Of a stretch of 64,000 nucleotides of DNA, positions 3,687-21,330 are shown piece after piece. Made by a program: the position numbers and the translations under genes. The stretch lies in contig CAKMZV010000001.1 of assembly GCA_929200535.1 (NCBI GenBank), forward strand, positions 45,470 to 109,469, read 5' to 3'. Position 1 is the first letter of the stretch, and each line of letters begins with the position of its first letter. The notes beneath the pieces were generated by a model that made no database searches, had not been told where the DNA came from, and worked only from the letters and a program-made list of their open reading frames with translations. This stretch comes from an uncultured Gammaproteobacteria bacterium (lineage in GTDB: Bacteria; Pseudomonadota; Gammaproteobacteria; CAKMZV01).

Positions 3687-4038
3687 TACTTTTATATTGT
3701 TTTAGGCAGTTTTATGCTCTGTAGATTAACTGAAATATATATTATATTCCCTTTGAAAATAAAGACCTTTTGCAAATAAGGGATTTAACGACTTATCCAG
3801 CTTTAAGATTGCAAACAAAATGAGAGCCAATCATCAATGAAAACATAGCAAAACAGACCACGAGCCTCAGTCCCGAAGCTATTATGAGGTTACAGGTATT
3901 GAATAATAAGACGGTGAGGTACTTTGGGGAAATTTGGAGGGAGTAAAAATCTAAATCTGTCTATAAAAGCTAATTTCAAAATACTTACTACTTATATCAG
4001 TAAAATGGTAGTCTAACCACCACCACCCAAAAAATTCC

Positions 4039-5754
4039 TTATTTTTTCCACTCTTTTACAATATTGTCAAAATCTACATTTTTCCACTGCTCTTTCCAAA
4101 TTTTTAGATACTCAATATCGTTAGAAGAAGGCTTGGGGCTGCATTCATCAATTTTGATAATTGAAGGCATGATGATTGATTCTCCAATAAGCAAGGCCTC
4201 TCCTGACTGCATAGAAGGCATTGAATCTGTCAAATTCCCTAGAGTATCAGGCAAGAGCCTTTTTACATAGTTTTGGTCATCTGGATTTGTAAGTCTCATG
4301 GCAATAAAATTGTTACATTGAGAAAAAATTGTTTCTGAAATTTCGGAAGGTCTTTGACTTACAATACCCAAAGTGACTCCATATTTTCTTCCTTCTTTAG
4401 CAATTCTTTCAATTGCCATTTTGGATGCCCTATATCTTACTAAATCGCTTTTTGGTACATATTTATGGGCTTCTTCATAAATCAAAACAAGGGGAGTTTC
4501 GCAATCCTTTGACTTTTCATCTAAAAGTTTTTTATAAAAATATCCATATTCAAAAAGAATTCTAGAAATCAACGAAACGGTGATACTTAAAACTTCAAAA
4601 GGGATTCCAGATAAATCCACTACTGTGATATTTGATTTGGAGTCTTGGTATCCTAAAAACTGCTTCAAAACATCTTCAACAGTCATATTTTCAACATTCT
4701 CAAACAAGAATTTGAGCCTTGGGTTGTGCCTTGTGTTCTCTAATCTTAAAACAAATCTTTCGAAATCTCCCGTGTATGGACCATTTACATAATTTGAATC
4801 AACTTTATCAAATTCAAGCTCTTCTTCAAAGTATTTCGTCAATCTATCATGAATAATCTCCCCTGTTTTTGTTGTTGGAGTTCTATTATTCTTTTTATTT
4901 ACAAATTCATTATTAATATTCTTTATATATTTAATCACTCCATCAATACTAAATTTTAAGGGTGAGTCAAAATAGATTTTATTTTGATCCTGTTCCGAAT
5001 TTAATTTTTTCTTATTTTCAGTGACTGCATATCTAAATTGTGAAATTTGATTATGAGAGTTGCTTTCATTGCTCTCAATAAATAAGTCTCCCAATTCATC
5101 ACTATCAAATAACCAGTATGGGATTTTAATATCTGCACTTATATGATTGGCTGTAGGAAAAGCCTCTTTATACTCACCATGAATATCAAATAGAACAATA
5201 TGAGAATTATTTAATCCATCGTATTCTCCATTTTTTGAGCTTATAGCTTCCTGTAAAATTTTTGCTACAGTGTGAGATTTTCCTGACCCTGTTGACCCAA
5301 CAATTGCAAAATGTTTGTTAAAAAATTTATCCCCGTTTACAGGCACATTAATTCTTTCATCTTGTGCTAATTTAGAAAAACAAAATTTTTCCTTATCTTT
5401 TATACTAGTTTGATAAATTTTATCAATATCATCATGTTTTGCAGGTTGGACACTCGTTGGAGGAATCGTTAAAGAATCCCCACCCCTTGTAAATTTTTCT
5501 CCAATAATTGTTCCCAAAGGATTTGCTTCAATAATGTATTTTCTTTTCCCATCCTCGTTTACTTCTATCAAGTAGCTTTCAATTATTGCAATGAGTTTAC
5601 AGTTTTTATCATCAGAAATTTCAAGGTATGAGCCAACTTTTAATTCCTCTAATTGTTCATCACAAGATTTAAATGCATCAAGATTGTCCACAGATATTTT
5701 TACTTTGTTAGGATAAACTGCAATAACTTCAGCTAATTTTGTTTCTTTTGTCAT
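4039..5754 (-). CDS. HerA/FtsK-superfamily ATPase (DUF87/COG0433-type), candidate anti-phage defence ATPase
   Basis: 571 aa. Walker A HFAIVGSTGSGKSHTVAKIL, Walker B-like PLVLIYEEAHKYVP, C-terminal GVTLGIVSQRPSEISETIFSQCNNFIAMRLTNPDDQ block typical of HerA/DUF87. Low-GC gene, second gene of a 2-gene operon (11-nt gap to upstream ORF), adjacent to tRNA-Leu. Confidence 0.8.
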   Translation of the reverse strand: MTKETKLAEVIAVYPNKVKISVDNLDAFKSCDEQLEELKVGSYLEISDDKNCKLIAIIESYLIEVNEDGKRKYIIEANPLGTIIGEKFTRGGDSLTIPPTSVQPAKHDDIDKIYQTSIKDKEKFCFSKLAQDERINVPVNGDKFFNKHFAIVGSTGSGKSHTVAKILQEAISSKNGEYDGLNNSHIVLFDIHGEYKEAFPTANHISADIKIPYWLFDSDELGDLFIESNESNSHNQISQFRYAVTENKKKLNSEQDQNKIYFDSPLKFSIDGVIKYIKNINNEFVNKKNNRTPTTKTGEIIHDRLTKYFEEELEFDKVDSNYVNGPYTGDFERFVLRLENTRHNPRLKFLFENVENMTVEDVLKQFLGYQDSKSNITVVDLSGIPFEVLSITVSLISRILFEYGYFYKKLLDEKSKDCETPLVLIYEEAHKYVPKSDLVRYRASKMAIERIAKEGRKYGVTLGIVSQRPSEISETIFSQCNNFIAMRLTNPDDQNYVKRLLPDTLGNLTDSMPSMQSGEALLIGESIIMPSIIKIDECSPKPSSNDIEYLKIWKEQWKNVDFDNIVKEWKK

Positions 5755-5765
5755 AATTTTTTAGG

Positions 5766-6938
5766 TTAAAGAATAGATAAAATATCAGATAAATTTTGAA
5801 TCTGAATTTTTATATTTTTATTATCAGACTCTATTTTAAGAGAAGTGTTTATGAAAAATTGATAAATTTCCTTTGTTTTTCCAAAATTTTCTGCAATCAT
5901 TTCTAAAAAATTATCCTCTGTATTAAGAAATTTTAAACATATACCGTTGTCTTTTGTTGAGGGCTCTTTTAGAGACTTAGAAGAAAAAACGGCATTTAAA
6001 AAATCATGCCCATCCTTTAATAAATGTCCTTCTTCATTTAAAGCTTGTTTTGTTGCTTGCAAATTTTCGGGTGTAATATTTGAAAGATAAATAAAAGGAG
6101 CTCCAGATTTTATTGCTCTATTTGCAGAGCAATAAAATTTATTTTTTATGCCTAAAATAGTCGTTTTTATTTGCTCTAATGCTTCGTTTTCTTGCAATTC
6201 AACCCAAATGAACCTCTCGAAATCATCTATATTTCTCCATGTAAAGTATTTTTTTTTGATAAGGGAAAAATATTCTTCATCCTTTAAAAACTCTCTATAA
6301 GCAGAGTAAAAAATACAACTTTTATGGTTACTAATAATATTTGTTAATTCTGATTTTGAACTTTTTCTTTCTTGGATATTTGTGGTTTGATTATTCGTAA
6401 TTTTTCTAAAAAGATGATCTAAGATTATTCCGTGAGCAAATACTGCATCTTCATCAGAAGAATAAGAAAACTCTGTTTTTATTTTTTCAATTACACTTTC
6501 AAAATGCTCATCAAAATTCTTTGAAAAATTAAAAGTAAAAGCTGAAAGAAAGCTGTTTTTTAGAGATTCATCAAAGTCATTGTTTCCTAAAATTGTATTT
6601 AATTCATCTAAACTTAAATTTTTAACACCTTCTTCTTGATCGCCAAAATAAGCATAAAGATGGTATTTTTTTGCTTGGTCTTTTTGGAAAAGTTCAATTA
6701 ATTGAATTATAGGCTTTTTTACAGATGAAGGGTAGTATGTTGCTTGTTCTTTATACTTAACCTGAATAACCTCATCGTCAAAATTGATATCTTGCTTTTG
6801 TTCAAAAGAAATTTCTGATTCAGGATTTTCGAGTATCTCTAAAATAGTTTTGTCCATCTGATAAACAAAACCTTTTATCGCATAATACCCACCATTCTCT
6901 GTTTTTATTTCTTTAACCATAAGCTTAAAATTTTGCAA
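5766..6938 (-). CDS. HerA-associated partner protein; possible DUF4297/Cap4-like (PD-(D/E)xK) nuclease effector, family uncertain
   Basis: 390-aa ORF immediately upstream of the HerA-like gene on the same strand. N-terminal GGYYAIKGFVYQ motif and acidic patch INFDDEVIQVKYK; no Sir2 GAGxS Rossmann motif seen. Very AT-rich. Confidence 0.55.
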   Translation of the reverse strand: MQNFKLMVKEIKTENGGYYAIKGFVYQMDKTILEILENPESEISFEQKQDINFDDEVIQVKYKEQATYYPSSVKKPIIQLIELFQKDQAKKYHLYAYFGDQEEGVKNLSLDELNTILGNNDFDESLKNSFLSAFTFNFSKNFDEHFESVIEKIKTEFSYSSDEDAVFAHGIILDHLFRKITNNQTTNIQERKSSKSELTNIISNHKSCIFYSAYREFLKDEEYFSLIKKKYFTWRNIDDFERFIWVELQENEALEQIKTTILGIKNKFYCSANRAIKSGAPFIYLSNITPENLQATKQALNEEGHLLKDGHDFLNAVFSSKSLKEPSTKDNGICLKFLNTEDNFLEMIAENFGKTKEIYQFFINTSLKIESDNKNIKIQIQNLSDILSIL

Positions 6939-7352
6939 ATACTCTACTCATAAGTTTTATAAAATCAACATAATATCATCCTGAATTAATGAACCTTTCA
7001 TTCATTCTACAACAAATAGTTTTCACAGGTTTTAATTAACTATTTTCAGAAGGTAGAAATAAGGACATTATCGAAGCTTAAATAAAACTCGAATATACAG
7101 TAGCAAGGTTGCAAGTTTGTAATGAATAGTTAAAAACTGTTCGTCGTCTTCACTTGCTATCTTTCCAAGGGTCAACCCTTAGAAACCTATGAGGGGGATT
7201 TTCATAAAATCACCCTTCAAACCCTCGTAATGAGAGTAAACAAAAGCTATCGTTTTTGACTCTGCCCAGAGGAGTTAGAAGATTTTGAGCTTTCGCCACG
7301 TACATCCTACATCTCACCCTGACGCTTTATAAAAGGTTTTTCATTATAGCTA

Positions 7353-7439
7353 TGGTACCAGAGGTCGGACTCGAACCGACACGCTTTTAAGGGCGGGGGA
7401 TTTTGAATCCCCTGTGTCTACCAATTCCACCACTCTGGC
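7353..7439 (-). tRNA. leuX: tRNA-Leu (anticodon CAA), leuX-like
   Basis: Reverse complement GCCAGAGTGGTGGAATTGGTAGACACAGGGGATTCAAAATCCCCCGCCCTTAAAAGCGTGTCGGTTCGAGTCCGACCTCTGGTACCA; cloverleaf with anticodon loop TTCAAAA, long variable arm, GGTTCGAGTCC T-arm, CCA end. Near-identical architecture to E. coli leuX. Confidence 0.85.
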
Positions 7440-7746: not shown

Positions 7747-7823
7747 CGGGGCGTGGCGCAGCCTGGTAGCGCACCACAATGGGGTTGTGGGGGTCGTAGG
7801 TTCAAATCCTGCCGTCCCGACCA
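7747..7823 (+). tRNA. tRNA-Pro (anticodon GGG)
   Basis: CGGGGCGTGGCGCAGCCTGGTAGCGCACCACAATGGGGTTGTGGGGGTCGTAGGTTCAAATCCTGCCGTCCCGACCA; anticodon stem CCACA/TGTGG with loop ATGGGGT; closely resembles E. coli proL; followed by T-run. Confidence 0.85.
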
Positions 7824-7881: not shown

Positions 7882-7909
7882 TTGACTTTCATTTATTTGA
7901 TAGTATATA
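7882..7909 (+). promoter_or_regulatory. Candidate sigma70 promoter for hflK (TTGACT -16 nt- TATATA)
   Basis: TTGACT at 7882-7887, 16-nt spacer, TATATA at 7904-7909, about 45 nt upstream of hflK ATG. Confidence 0.35.
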
Positions 7910-7953
7910 AATAACTTGTATAAGACTTTCGCAACAAAAAAATAATATAAAAT

Positions 7954-9117
7954 ATGATGAATTGGAATGAGCCAGGGAATAAGGGAGAAAATCCTTGGGG
8001 AAATCGTGGGAATGATCCTTTTGAGGAGTTGAAAAAGCTCCTTAACTCTCTGTTTAATAAAAAATCTGGTAATGGAGAAGGTGGTGAAGGTGGCGATAAT
8101 GGAGCCTCTAATCTACCTATAAAATCGCTTGTTACAGGGATTATTATCATCTTAGGATTAGGGTGGTTAGCATCTGGTTTGTATAAGGTTGAAGATGCTG
8201 AGCGTGGGGTGGTTATACGCTTTGGACAATATCTCAAGGAAACGGGTGCAGGTTTGAATTGGCATGTCCCTTACCCCATTGAAACCGTTGAGTTGGTTAA
8301 TGTTAGTTTGGTGCGTACCATTCAAATTGGCTTTAGAGCAAATCGTGGGAAGGTGTTGAGTGAGTCTTTAATGCTTACGCAGGATGAGAATATTATTGAT
8401 GTCCAGTTGGAGGTTCAGTATCAAATTTCGAGTGCTCGTGATTTTCTCTTTAATGTGAGTCAGCCGATTGCGACATTACAGCAGGTTGTGGAGAGTGTGT
8501 TAAGAGAGGTCGTCGGGCAGAGTTTGATGGATTTTGTATTAACTGATGGGCGTTCAGAGGTGGCAGAGAGGGTGAAGTCTTTGGCACAGGAGGCGCTTGA
8601 TCAATTTGCGATTGGGCTAACAATTACTAATGTCAATATGCAGAACGCACAGGCTCCTGAACAGGTACAAGCGGCTTTTGATGATGCGGTAAAAGCAAGA
8701 GAGGATAAGGAGCGTATTATCAATGAGGCTCAAGCTTATTCTAATAAAATCCTCCCTCAAGCACGTGGTGAGGCTGCCCGTATGACAGAGGAGGCGACAG
8801 CGTATAAGGAAAGAGTGATTGCAGAGGCTAAGGGTCAAACTGAGCGTTTTGATAAACTTTATAAGGAGTATATTAAGGCTCCTAAAGTAACACGTGACAG
8901 GATGTATCTTGACACAATGGAGTCGGTAATGCAGAAGTCGAACAAAATTATTCTCGATACTAAGGGAAATAATAGCTTGATGTATTTACCGATTGATAAA
9001 CTAATTCCACAAGGTTTTTCACAACCAAGAGAAAACAATAGTAATGTGAATTCTGCTGGACAAAACCTTGATAATAATTACCGTCAAAGAAATACCTTAG
9101 GAGCGAGAACACGATGA
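7954..9117 (+). CDS. hflK: FtsH protease modulator HflK (SPFH/band-7)
   Basis: 387-aa ORF with N-terminal Gly/Asn-rich tail, TM segment and SPFH domain; followed by overlapping hflC (ATGA overlap). Confidence 0.85.
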   Translation: MMNWNEPGNKGENPWGNRGNDPFEELKKLLNSLFNKKSGNGEGGEGGDNGASNLPIKSLVTGIIIILGLGWLASGLYKVEDAERGVVIRFGQYLKETGAGLNWHVPYPIETVELVNVSLVRTIQIGFRANRGKVLSESLMLTQDENIIDVQLEVQYQISSARDFLFNVSQPIATLQQVVESVLREVVGQSLMDFVLTDGRSEVAERVKSLAQEALDQFAIGLTITNVNMQNAQAPEQVQAAFDDAVKAREDKERIINEAQAYSNKILPQARGEAARMTEEATAYKERVIAEAKGQTERFDKLYKEYIKAPKVTRDRMYLDTMESVMQKSNKIILDTKGNNSLMYLPIDKLIPQGFSQPRENNSNVNSAGQNLDNNYRQRNTLGARTR

Positions 9118-16465: not shown

Positions 16466-17380
16466 TTAAGCCGCTTTATGCCAAGAATATATTTTCCCCG
16501 GCTCTGGCTCCCAAATGGAAGCATTTTCAACACCCGGTAACATCGCTATCGCACGAAACTCTGAAGCCATAGCCACCCACTGATCTGTCTCAGCAATCAC
16601 CGCTGGCTTGCAGCCGATATTATCACGCATTACCGCAAAACCATCCTTAGTACCAATAGCAAAGGTATAAAAACCATCAAGATCATCTAATGCTTTAGTT
16701 AAGGCGGTATTTAAATCATCGCCTTGTTTTAAACGCCAGTTAAAATAGGCGGCAGCCACTTCACTGTCATTATCGGTGCTAATTACAATCCCTTCTTTGC
16801 GTAATTTTTCACGCCATCTATTGTGATTAGAAAGCGAACCATTGTGCACTAAACAAATATCATCCCCCGTTGAAAAAGGATGTGAGTGACCAGTCGTCAC
16901 GGCACTTTCTGTCGCCATACGAGTGTGCCCTAAAGCATGGCTACCAGTAAAACTTTGCAAATTAAAGGAAGCGATAACATCTTTAGGTAAGCCTTTTTCT
17001 TTGTATATCTCAATGACCCTTCCGCTACCATTCACATTAATATGAGGGAAATTTTCATTTAGCCACTCATTAAGTGTATTTGTATCTGTTTCCACACTAA
17101 TCAATGCATGAGAGCCTTTTTCCTCAAACTTCGTATCATTACCAAACTGCTTCTTTAGTGCTTGCCTCACTTCATCCCAATTTAACTCTTCACCGCTATC
17201 TACTAACGTGTTTAATAGCGTACATTTAATCTGCTTTCCGATTGTAGGTTGATCATAAATGGCAAATCCCACACTATCAGGTCCTCTTTCAGTCATTTCG
17301 ATAAGCATATCCGACAAATAACTACCTAAGTGCCCTTCTAATTTTTTTTCTTTTAAAAATAATCCGACAATTCCACACAT
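16466..17380 (-). CDS. Class II (Ntn) glutamine amidotransferase domain protein (GltB domain-1 homologue; MgsA-like)
   Basis: 304 aa starting MCGIVGLF (catalytic Cys2 after Met), typical GATase-2. Confidence 0.8.
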   Translation of the reverse strand: MCGIVGLFLKEKKLEGHLGSYLSDMLIEMTERGPDSVGFAIYDQPTIGKQIKCTLLNTLVDSGEELNWDEVRQALKKQFGNDTKFEEKGSHALISVETDTNTLNEWLNENFPHINVNGSGRVIEIYKEKGLPKDVIASFNLQSFTGSHALGHTRMATESAVTTGHSHPFSTGDDICLVHNGSLSNHNRWREKLRKEGIVISTDNDSEVAAAYFNWRLKQGDDLNTALTKALDDLDGFYTFAIGTKDGFAVMRDNIGCKPAVIAETDQWVAMASEFRAIAMLPGVENASIWEPEPGKIYSWHKAA

Positions 17381-17462
17381 AATATTTTTATATTGTTGTT
17401 AGTAATTTACGCAACATCCAACCTATTCCAAAAAAAATACTCACGCTTACTACCATACAGAT

Positions 17463-17623
17463 TGAGACCTTTGCATAAAAGTATGGTAAAAGAAAAAAGA
17501 TAAAAAATCGTTCTGATTGAGGCGTGAAATGAAGCTAATACGTCCGTCTTCGCAAATTTCACAACGATAATCAGGGCGATTTTTTACTTTTTTACTTGTC
17601 ATATCTTTTGTGCAAAGGTCTCA
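17463..17623 (-). mobile_element. MITE-like palindromic repeat, copy 2 (orientation A)
   Basis: tgagacctttgcataaaagtatggtaaaagaaaaaagataaaaaatcgttctgattgaggcgtgaaatgaagctaatacgtccgtcttcgcaaatttcacaacgataatcagggcgattttttacttttttacttgtcatatcttttgtgcaaaggtctca. Confidence 0.85.
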
Positions 17624-17664
17624 GATTGCACACTCCCTCAAAATGACGAAAGTAGGCAGCGTCT

Positions 17665-18423
17665 CTACTGATTTCCTAAGGCTGTTCTTGCTAATTCTTT
17701 AGCTGGGAGATAGCCACCGACTAATGTGCCATTTGGCATTATGATGGCAGGAGTTCCTCTAATGCCGAGGCTCGTTCCAGTCTGATATTGTTTGTCAATC
17801 TCTGGCGAACAGTTAGCCACTTTTTTAAATCCACGAATGCTCTCGTTCTTTTTAGACGCAGTCATTGCTGCACGTTGATCCTTTGAACACCAAACATCAA
17901 TCGCTTTAGCCCAGTCTCTCTCTGTTGGACTACCGCTTCGAGGGAATGACAAATAGTTAACCGTAACCCCTAAGTCATTTAATTCAGTGATTTCTGCATG
18001 TAATTTCCGACAATAGAAACAATCAATATCAGTAAAAACCCATACAGAGGTCTTTTCATTTTTAGCGTTAAAAGTTATTAGATTTTCTGCATCAAGGTTT
18101 TTTAATGTAGATAAGTTGAACTCTTTCCGTAAACCTGCCGTTAAGTTTTCACGTTTATCCAGATTCCAAGCCTCACCAGCAAGATAATATTTTCCATCTT
18201 TACTTACTAAGCCAAAGTCTCCTTTAAACCGCATAATATAAAAATCTTTGACTTCACTATCAATCAAAAGGATATCCTTAGGATTAACATCTCCAAAAAT
18301 AGCAGCTAATTTTTGTGCTACCTGCTGTTTCGTCATTTGTTTCGCTTGAGCAACAGGAGCAGCTATCAGTAAACAAAAAAGAATAAAAAAAATGCTCTGC
18401 TGAATTCGATATAAAAAAAACAT
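17665..18423 (-). CDS. dsbC: Periplasmic thiol:disulfide interchange protein (DsbC/DsbG family)
   Basis: 252 aa, signal peptide, thioredoxin fold with CFYC active site (DIDCFYCRKLH). Confidence 0.7.
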   Translation of the reverse strand: MFFLYRIQQSIFFILFCLLIAAPVAQAKQMTKQQVAQKLAAIFGDVNPKDILLIDSEVKDFYIMRFKGDFGLVSKDGKYYLAGEAWNLDKRENLTAGLRKEFNLSTLKNLDAENLITFNAKNEKTSVWVFTDIDCFYCRKLHAEITELNDLGVTVNYLSFPRSGSPTERDWAKAIDVWCSKDQRAAMTASKKNESIRGFKKVANCSPEIDKQYQTGTSLGIRGTPAIIMPNGTLVGGYLPAKELARTALGNQ

Positions 18424-18447
18424 ACAACACCCTCAGTTTAAATTATG

Positions 18448-18490
18448 AAAAAAAAAAGCCTCCAATACTATCGGCAGTATCGGAAGGCTT
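18448..18490 (-). terminator. Rho-independent terminator downstream of rplS
   Basis: On minus strand: GCCTTCC-(loop)-GGAGGC stem followed by T10 (plus-strand A-run 18448-18457). Confidence 0.45.
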
Positions 18491-18509
18491 TTGTATAAAG
18501 AAAAAACAA

Positions 18510-18872
18510 CTACTTTTTGTTTTTACTTGTATCTAACTTCTCACGAATTCTTGTTGCCTTGCCAAACCGATCTCTTAAATAATAAATTTTTGCACGACGG
18601 ACAACTCCACGACGCTCAACTTTAATGCTTGAAATCAAAGGACTATGGGTTTGGAAGACACGTTCCACACCAACCCCGTAAGAAATCTTCCTTACTGTAA
18701 AAGACGAATGGAGCCCACGATTTTTTTTCGCAATGACAACTCCCTGAAAATTCTGCAAACGTTCTCTCTCTCCTTCTTTCACACGCACAAATACAGAAAC
18801 AGTATCTCCTGGTGAAAAATCGGCTCTTTCTTTCAAGTGTTCTTTTTCTAAAGCTTGAATAATTTGACTCAT
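18510..18872 (-). CDS. rplS: 50S ribosomal protein L19
   Basis: 120 aa [14 protein letters not shown]...; canonical L19. Confidence 0.9.
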
Positions 18873-18995
18873 AATAAAGTTTGTTTGAATAAAAAATTAG
18901 GTTATGCCTAAAATTAAATAGACTAATCTATTAATTGTAGTGGATAACAGTGATTATTTCCATTTTTCAGTCTAAAATCACCCACTGATTTGGTT

Positions 18996-20831
18996 TTATT
19001 TTGCTTGCCTACTGTATTTTTTACGCTCTGTTTCCAATAGAACTTTTTTGCGAATACGTAAATGATTCGGAGTTACTTCCACCAACTCATCATTTTTAAT
19101 TAACTCAATAGCTTGCTCCAAATCAAATTTTAATGGCGGAGTAAGCACTAAATTTTCATCTGTGCCAGCTGCTCGAACATTAGTGAGCTGTTTCCCTTTG
19201 GTTACGTTAATTACCAAATCATTATCACGAGAATGAATGCCAAGCACCATCCCTTCATAAACCTCTTCCCCATGCCCAATAAAGAATTTACCACTTTTTT
19301 GCAAATTAAAAATAGAATACGCCGTCGCTTTACCTGCACCGTTTGAAATAAGCGAACCATTATTACGTTGGGCAATCTTCTCATTCTTTTTACCCTTAAA
19401 TGGGGCATACTCATCAAAAATACTGTACCATAATCCAGTACCCGTAGTCAGCGTAAGAAACTCCGTTCTAAAGCCCAACAATCCACGTGAGGGGATGATG
19501 TAATCTAAACGAATCCGTCCTTTACCATCTGGTTGCATATTCACACACTCCCCTTTTCGCAACCCCAAATTTTCCATCACTGCCCCTTGATGCTGTTCTT
19601 CAACATCAACCGTAAGCTGTTCAAAAGGCTCACACAAAACACCATCAATTTCTTTAAAAATAACCTGTGGTCTGCCAACACATAACTCAAATCCTTCACG
19701 GCGCATATTCTCAATCAAAATCGATAAATGTAATTCCCCACGCCCTGAAACATTAAATACACTCGCATCATCCGTATCTTCAACCCGTAATGCAACGTTA
19801 TAAATCAATTCTTTTTGTAATCGCTCACCAATCAAACGAGAAGTCACAAATTTACCATCACGCCCAGCCGTTGGAGAATTATTAACACGAAAAGTCATAC
19901 TCACCGTAGGCTCATCCACCTTAAGTGGTGGCAACGCTTGTGGGCTCTTAATATCACATAATGTATCCGAAATATGAATAGGCTCAATACCCACAACACA
20001 GACAATATCTCCTGCCGAAGCATCGGAAATTTCAGTTTTTTCTAAACCGTGAAAACCTAAAATTTGCCCAATTTTTACGTTACGCTTTTCACCTTTAGGG
20101 TTAATTAATGACACTGTCATATTCTTACTCAAACTACCCTGCTTAATCCTGCCAATACCGATAGCCCCAAGAAAAGATGAATAATCCAAAGCGGTAATCT
20201 GCATTTGAAAAGGCTTATCTGCCTCCACTTCAGGCTGAGGTACTTTATCTATAACTGTCTCAAAAAGGGCAGTCATATCCGTATCTTTAGGATTAGGTGG
20301 ATAATCTAAACTCGCAAAGCCCTTAATCGCAGAAGCATAAATAACTGAAAAATCTAATTGTTCCTCACTTGCTCCCAGCCGATCAAATAAATCAAACACT
20401 TGATCAATCACCCAATCAGGACGAGCCGAAGGGCGATCAATTTTATTCACCACCACAATCGGGTTTAACCCTTGCTCAAATGCTTTTTGGGTGACAAAAC
20501 GAGTTTGTGGCATCGGACCATCAACCGCATCAACCAACAATAACACACTATCCACCATTGATAATACTCGCTCAACCTCACCTCCAAAATCTGAATGTCC
20601 TGGTGTATCTACAATATTGATATGGTAATCTTGCCAAGTGATGGCAGTATTCTTAGAACTAATCGTAATTCCTCGCTCACGTTCTAAATCATTAGAATCC
20701 ATCATCCTCTCTTCGGCTTTAAAGCGTTCATCAAAGGTGTTAGACTGCGTTAATAATTTATCAACAAGCGTGGTTTTACCATGATCAACATGAGCGATAA
20801 TGGCAATATTTCTGAGTTTTCTATCTGTCAT
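18996..20831 (-). CDS. typA: Translational GTPase TypA/BipA
   Basis: 611 aa; [11 protein letters not shown]1, DTPGH, NKID G-motifs plus EF-G-like domains; TypA length and order. Confidence 0.9.
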
Positions 20832-20874
20832 TTATAAGGATTTGTCATTTATAAGGCGGGCAATGGTCTTAATT

Positions 20875-21035
20875 TGAGCCCTTTGCACAAAAGTATGGCA
20901 AAAGAAAAAAGATAAAAAATCGTTCTGATTAAGGCGTGAAATGAAGCCAATACGTCCGTCTTCGCAAATTTCACAACGAAAATCAGAGCGATTTTTTGCT
21001 TTTTTACTTGTCATATCTTTTGTGCAAAGGGCTCT
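20875..21035 (-). mobile_element. MITE-like palindromic repeat, copy 3 (orientation A, variant termini tgagccc...gggctc)
   Basis: Same about 160-bp element with G-to-C change in both termini (compensatory, preserves terminal hairpin). Confidence 0.8.
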
Positions 21036-21330
21036 TTGTAAAAAAAAATCCAAAGGAGCTGCAAAAGTCCCATAATCGACCTTGCTTACTACTTTGGATT
21101 ACGTATTACTTAATTATACAATCAGTTATTTATTTGATGATGATGGCAGTGTTGTATTTAATCCATCAATATGTTCGTGTAAATCAGGTTTGATAGGAGC
21201 CCACATAGAATCTAAAACAAATAAATTTATACCCATTAGAGAATTTGGATAAAAAAAATCCAGAGGGTTGGCTAAATTCTTATCGTCGAATCAGCGTTTA
21301 TGCTCTGGATTGTGAATAGTATATAATCTT

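Follow-up and report, generated by a model that had tools for sequence, protein, structure and literature searches.

The 64,000-nt stretch of DNA analysed here (the window; contig CAKMZV010000001.1, positions 45,470 to 109,469, from an uncultured gammaproteobacterium) carries a pair of adjacent genes. The first of them very probably codes for the DUF4297 subunit of an anti-phage system of two genes, DUF4297-HerA, and belongs to a divergent clade that has no name in the databases. It was identified as such because it combines a nuclease fold with an intact site, an assembly domain and a tightly linked, intact HerA. The pair is a divergent member of a characterised defence system and not a new type of effector. 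An earlier, sequence-only reading of the same open reading frame (ORF) had seen in it a HerA partner of uncertain family, perhaps with a Cap4-type PD-(D/E)xK nuclease domain of the DUF4297 kind. The core of that proposal was borne out by profile, PDB-sequence and fold evidence; the family turned out not to be uncertain, as PADLOC, NCBIfam, PDB sequence and fold all assign the protein to DUF4297.

The 390-codon ORF at 5766..6938 lies on the minus strand, and the plus-strand translation of the same coordinates is full of stops. The maximal ORF starts at TTG 6938; ATG 6920, which gives a protein of 384 amino acids (aa), was considered the likelier start, as both the gene call of the source (384 aa) and the homologues' N-termini favour it, and residues are numbered from it throughout. 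Both the ORF and the peptides quoted from it in the earlier reading were confirmed in the sequence, one of them, INFDDEVIQVKYK, at residues 45-57 (51-63 from TTG 6938) and the other as listed in Table 1.

The PADLOC DUF4297 model PDLC02187 matched the protein with E=1.7e-50 (residues 14-384 on profile positions 9-404 of 404), and the sole NCBIfam match was NF042945 ('DUF4297 family anti-phage-associated protein'), which aligned over the full length with E=2.9e-58. A sequence search of the PDB returned the E. coli DUF4297 chain 8xav_G (E=8.6e-25, query 14-383 against chain 8-393), and 9c1m_A and 8ziq_A were matched in the N-terminal domain only (E=4e-10 and 5e-7). BLASTP against E. coli DUF4297 gave 26% identity over 394 columns (E=4e-30); in this alignment, as in the PDB search, homology extends residue by residue through the C-terminal domain. 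The E. coli system (8XAU/8XAV/8XAW/8ZGI; An et al., Cell Res 2024, PMC11291478) has the same gene order and a full-length, two-domain DUF4297 of 394 aa; the window protein lacks about 10 residues of N-terminal domain insertions relative to it. The DUF4297 proteins of Bacillus sp. HMH5848 (9C1M; Rish et al., Mol Cell 2025) and of the 8ZIQ/8ZIR/8ZIT complex (Tang et al., Mol Cell 2025) are longer, at 436 and 397 aa, and their sequence similarity to the window protein is confined to the N-terminal domain, which is Cap4-like in both of them as well.

The AlphaFold2 model, for which 71 aligned sequences were used, was confident (pLDDT 91.3, pTM 0.81). When this model was compared with the PDB by Foldseek, a check that had been proposed with the earlier reading, a nuclease fold was found and the top 13 matches were all DUF4297 chains of HerA complexes, among them 8zgi_A (E=3e-21). 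The N-terminal domain has the Cap4-like PD-(D/E)xK fold with an intact D...QxK site, so that kinship to Cap4 is seen at the level of the fold. Chains that comprise the C-terminal domain only superpose on the model with TM scores of 0.87-0.88 and root-mean-square deviations (rmsd) of 2.2-2.6 Å, among them 8xaw_Q (TMt 0.88, rmsd 2.2) and 8xav_M (TMt 0.87). As modelled, the C-terminal region is the standard assembly domain of the DUF4297 family.

Conservation was counted in 71 aligned homologues, which are 25-81% identical to the query. Six N-terminal positions, G17, Q21, E40, D44, Q53 and K55, are invariant (71/71), and E58 is kept in 65 of the 71. The GFxYQ-type motif pointed out in the earlier reading is thus conserved beyond chance, G17 and Q21 being part of it. 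The 'FDDE' acidic patch is poorly kept (D48 in 20/71, D49 in 34/71, E50 in 5/71). The catalytic residues suggested at that stage, D58/E59/K64, miss those residue types in both numberings; the acidic part of the suggestion fell with the variable FDDE patch, and the lysine part stood, the K of QVK being the invariant K55. Q53 and K55 align with residues of the same numbers in E. coli DUF4297, where the nuclease-inactive complex was made with the Q53A/K55A double mutant (PMC11291478). At the position of D44, the Bacillus HMH5848 enzyme has the Mg-coordinating residue D41 (bioRxiv 10.1101/2024.10.24.620088), and E58 is the counterpart of Bacillus E59. K61 of that enzyme, catalytic according to Rish et al., has no conserved counterpart: the position is variable (K in 29/71), and the window protein has A60/T61 there. 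The published catalytic assignments disagree, with Q53/K55 named by An et al. (PMC11291478) and D41/E59/K61 by Rish et al. (bioRxiv 10.1101/2024.10.24.620088). Judged from the alignment, conservation in the clade supports D...QxK, and not the Bacillus E59/K61 pair, as the putative universally conserved catalytic core.

The two genes are co-directional, with DUF4297 directly upstream of HerA and a gap of 11 nt. HerA was matched by Pfam DUF87 (E=6e-35) and PADLOC PDLC02188 (E=1e-252), and its best NCBIfam match, again over the full length, was NF042944 ('Anti-phage-associated helicase HerA', HerA_antiphage_2). In the PDB sequence search it matched E. coli HerA (8xau_A) with 619 bits, query 8-571 on chain 9-570; the HerA proteins of Bacillus sp. 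HMH5848 and of the 8ZIQ/8ZIR/8ZIT complex gave 480 and 446 bits. The E. coli protein is equal in length (571 aa) and shares Walker A, Walker B and the arginine finger with the window protein, which has GSTGSGKS (K159), E427/E428 and R456/K457 where E. coli HerA has K157, E426/E427 and R455/K456.

The association of the two genes is consistent among relatives. In a scan of GTDB with one genome per species, 80 loci with relatives were found, in Bacillota, Bacteroidota, Patescibacteria, Actinomycetota, Proteobacteria and Methanosarcinales, none of them above 49% identity; HerA directly follows on the same strand in 80 of 81 loci (the source scaffold counted), and the sole exception stops at a contig end. 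When 1.84 billion cluster representatives were searched exhaustively, 468 relatives were found, 283 of these at E<=1e-10. Nearly all full-length relatives among the 468 are 370-410 aa long and align end to end, which indicates a uniform two-domain architecture. No precomputed Pfam domain is present in any of 119 close relatives, almost all of which are named 'hypothetical protein'; farther, plasmid-borne relatives are labelled 'DUF4297 family anti-phage-associated protein'. No homologue was found in the phage collection. Close homologues (52-81% identity) occur in unrelated contexts, between insertion sequence (IS) elements, beside an integrase and after a type I restriction-modification (R-M) operon. 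Of the closest homologues, the one in L082 (81% identical) is flanked by IS630/rve transposases, that in L083 (78%) has a tyrosine integrase as its neighbour and that in L085 (53%) directly follows a type I R-M operon; two of these three loci have a shorter HerA, of 548 aa. The same pair was also observed in archaeal metagenome-assembled genomes (Methanosarcinales, Ca. Methanoperedens; L050, P0026, P0036), with a DUF4297 44% identical to that of the window; the HerA of L050 is 74% identical to the window HerA. These archaeal pairs suggest a transfer between bacteria and archaea.

The clade can be described by a length of about 380 aa, the N-terminal signature GGYYAIKGF and occurrence in Bacillota, Bacteroidota, Patescibacteria, Actinomycetota and methanogenic or methanotrophic archaea. 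There is a slight chance that it differs functionally from the prototypes, in trigger, in metal or substrate, or in ligand binding by the C-terminal domain; in this analysis, no positive sign of a functional difference from the E. coli and Bacillus prototypes was seen.

Several observations weigh against the assignment to DUF4297-HerA. The identity to any characterised DUF4297 is just 17-27%. The score with NF042945 (197.8 bits) is below the curated equivalog cutoff of 300 bits, and that of HerA with NF042944 (841.1 bits) is just below the cutoff of 850. Pfam PF14130 (Cap4_nuclease / DUF4297) did not match the N-terminal domain at E<=10. A promoter and terminator scan upstream of the operon gave nothing convincing, promoter-like sites being fewer than in shuffled sequence. 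Stoichiometry, metal preference, substrate and phage range would all be extrapolated from distant homologues. With respect to PF14130, which the earlier reading had named as a check, the null result is uninformative because the solved prototypes also fail or score below threshold: the E. coli prototype was not matched at E<=10 and the Bacillus prototype reached 22.3 bits against a gathering cutoff of 26.2. At E<0.01, PF14130 matched only 1 of 71 clade members, and it detects DUF4297 proteins associated with HerA poorly. Scanned with Pfam, the protein in full length and its N-terminal domain alone returned only noise (UCH, WAC, HeH). Both window proteins fall outside the narrow NCBIfam equivalog definition, and this accounts for their being labelled 'hypothetical protein'.

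Among the alternatives, an inactive remnant, that is, the decaying cargo of an old insertion, fares best and is still very unlikely. It would account for the failure to find an integrase in the window, att repeats (direct repeats of the tRNA-Leu 3' end were no longer than 8-11 nt) or a consensus promoter upstream; however, neither ORF is truncated in comparison with the solved homologues, and the invariant catalytic and ATPase residues are all intact. It is less probable again that the SIR2-like C-terminal domain has an NADase activity of its own, like that of Sir2-HerA (Nezha), which would make the protein a dual nuclease/NADase effector. This was rejected, since the protein has no SIR2 catalytic His and no Rossmann glycine motif; neither GxGxxG nor GAGxS occurs in its sequence, in agreement with the earlier remark that GAGxS was lacking. 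The effector of Sir2-HerA is an NADase, whereas that of the window is a predicted nuclease, and Sir2-type HerA models in NCBIfam match the window HerA far less well.

A new effector fusion, in which a novel C-terminal domain would follow a Cap4-like nuclease head, had been raised when the C-terminal region was first read, and it is now scarcely credible. Pfam is silent on the C-terminal 190 residues and the database copies are all named 'hypothetical protein', but these residues align one by one with, and superpose on, the solved C-terminal domain of E. coli DUF4297 at the values given above, and the 468 cluster representatives share a length of about 380-400 aa and the two-domain architecture. 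Cap4/SAVED, the CBASS effector, was rejected as well, since the C-terminal domain is not SAVED and the alignment with Cap4 spans only some 170 residues, which is as long as the nuclease domain. CBASS is further ruled out by the neighbours, which are HerA, putA and tRNA genes, with no cyclase (CD-NTase) gene. Cap4 (CBASS), the Avs3 N-terminal nuclease, LmuA (Lamassu) and HamA (Hachiman) are coupled to other partner or sensor modules than the window protein, namely SAVED, a STAND ATPase, the SMC-like LmuB and the HamB helicase.

The gene pair gives the impression of a small defence cassette that was acquired horizontally. It sits between putA and the 3' end of tRNA-Leu(CAA), which is a likely insertion landmark, and the flanks are housekeeping (putA, hflKC, hisZ, purA). 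The GC content at third codon positions is 0.18 and 0.23 in the two genes and 0.25-0.37 in the neighbouring genes. The setting differs from that of the E. coli system, in that the host is uncultured and low in GC and carries hflKC-hisZ-purA, and the nuclease falls below the NCBIfam cutoff. Just beyond the left end of the window, past putA, the source scaffold L001 encodes at 16616-21155 a lipase_3 protein, a type I R-M system (hsdM, a helix-turn-helix protein, hsdS) and an AAA_13 ATPase; the DUF4297-HerA pair therefore has further defence genes at a distance of no more than about 4 kb. Rfam and small-ORF scans of the flanking intergenic regions gave nothing except two tRNAs. A 114-aa TTG ORF at 7893-8237 on the minus strand, proline/serine-rich and antisense to the start of hflK, is probably spurious.

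The housekeeping neighbours, together with a match of HerA to the archaeal repair model NF040937 (E=9e-43, at a much lower score), could be taken to indicate a housekeeping HerA-nuclease pair for end resection, like archaeal HerA-NurA, and not an immune system. Against this, the anti-phage HerA models are the best NCBIfam matches by about 700 bits, the GC content is atypical and the site tRNA-adjacent, close homologues occur in unrelated, mobile or defence contexts, and the family is spread patchily over phyla and archaea. NurA, a further check proposed with the sequence-only reading, was matched neither by sequence nor by fold in the Pfam, PDB sequence and fold searches, and was rejected as the partner. 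Hence, a housekeeping role is hardly believable.

Table 1. Coordinates of the DUF4297-HerA pair, its domains and motifs, and adjacent features in the window
Feature	Position	Strand	Remarks
DUF4297 gene	5766..6920	minus	384 aa plus stop; very probably the nuclease subunit of DUF4297-HerA; ORF list, profile matches, source gene call
N-terminal Cap4-like PD-(D/E)xK nuclease domain	6336..6920	minus	about residues 1-195
GGYYAIKGFVYQ	6858..6893	minus	residues 10-21 (ATG) or 16-27 (TTG 6938); first helix begins here
Putative catalytic core E40...D44...Q53-V-K55...E58, sequence EQKQDINFDDEVIQVKYKE	6747..6803	minus	conservation in 71 homologues, prototype alignment
C-terminal oligomerisation / HerA-docking domain (predicted)	5769..6335	minus	about residues 196-384; Rossmann-like, SIR2-like fold, without catalytic His
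HerA ATPase	4039..5754	minus	571 aa; starts 11 nt after DUF4297 stop; Pfam, PADLOC, NCBIfam, PDB matches
Low-GC mini-island	3900..7000		holds the two defence genes and nothing else; GC 27-31% (whole window 37.8%)
tRNA-Leu(CAA)	7353..7439	minus	ARAGORN, Rfam; island starts about 410 nt downstream of the tRNA 3' end
tRNA-Pro(GGG)	7747-7823	plus	with tRNA-Leu(CAA) between cassette and hflK

For the DUF4297-HerA system proposed here, a mechanism can be drawn from the E. coli and Bacillus systems (An 2024, PMC11291478; Rish 2025, bioRxiv 10.1101/2024.10.24.620088; Tang 2025, Mol Cell), the only ones from which the 12:6 assembly, the assembly-activated nuclease and ATPase acting on double-stranded DNA (dsDNA) and the abortive-infection defence are known. 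By analogy, the HAS face of a HerA hexamer would carry twelve DUF4297 subunits, stacked through their C-terminal domains as two rings of six. Such an assembly would flatten HerA and so activate its ATPase, and it would pair the nuclease domains of the upper ring into clamp-shaped dimers, by which the nuclease would be activated. The dsDNA threaded by HerA would then be cut without sequence specificity, and both phage and host DNA would be destroyed, leading to abortive infection.

The signs of novelty in the sequence-only reading, an uncertain family and an unrecognised C-terminal domain, vanish on testing, and the pair is otherwise an ordinary example of a characterised system. The practical value of the finding lies mainly in annotation: the pair and about 120 close relatives are named 'hypothetical protein', stay below the NCBIfam cutoffs and are not seen by PF14130. 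Defence censuses built on NCBIfam or Pfam models would under-count the clade; the PADLOC model does detect it. For the family, the invariance of E40, D44, Q53 and K55 bears on the dispute between the two published assignments of catalytic residues.
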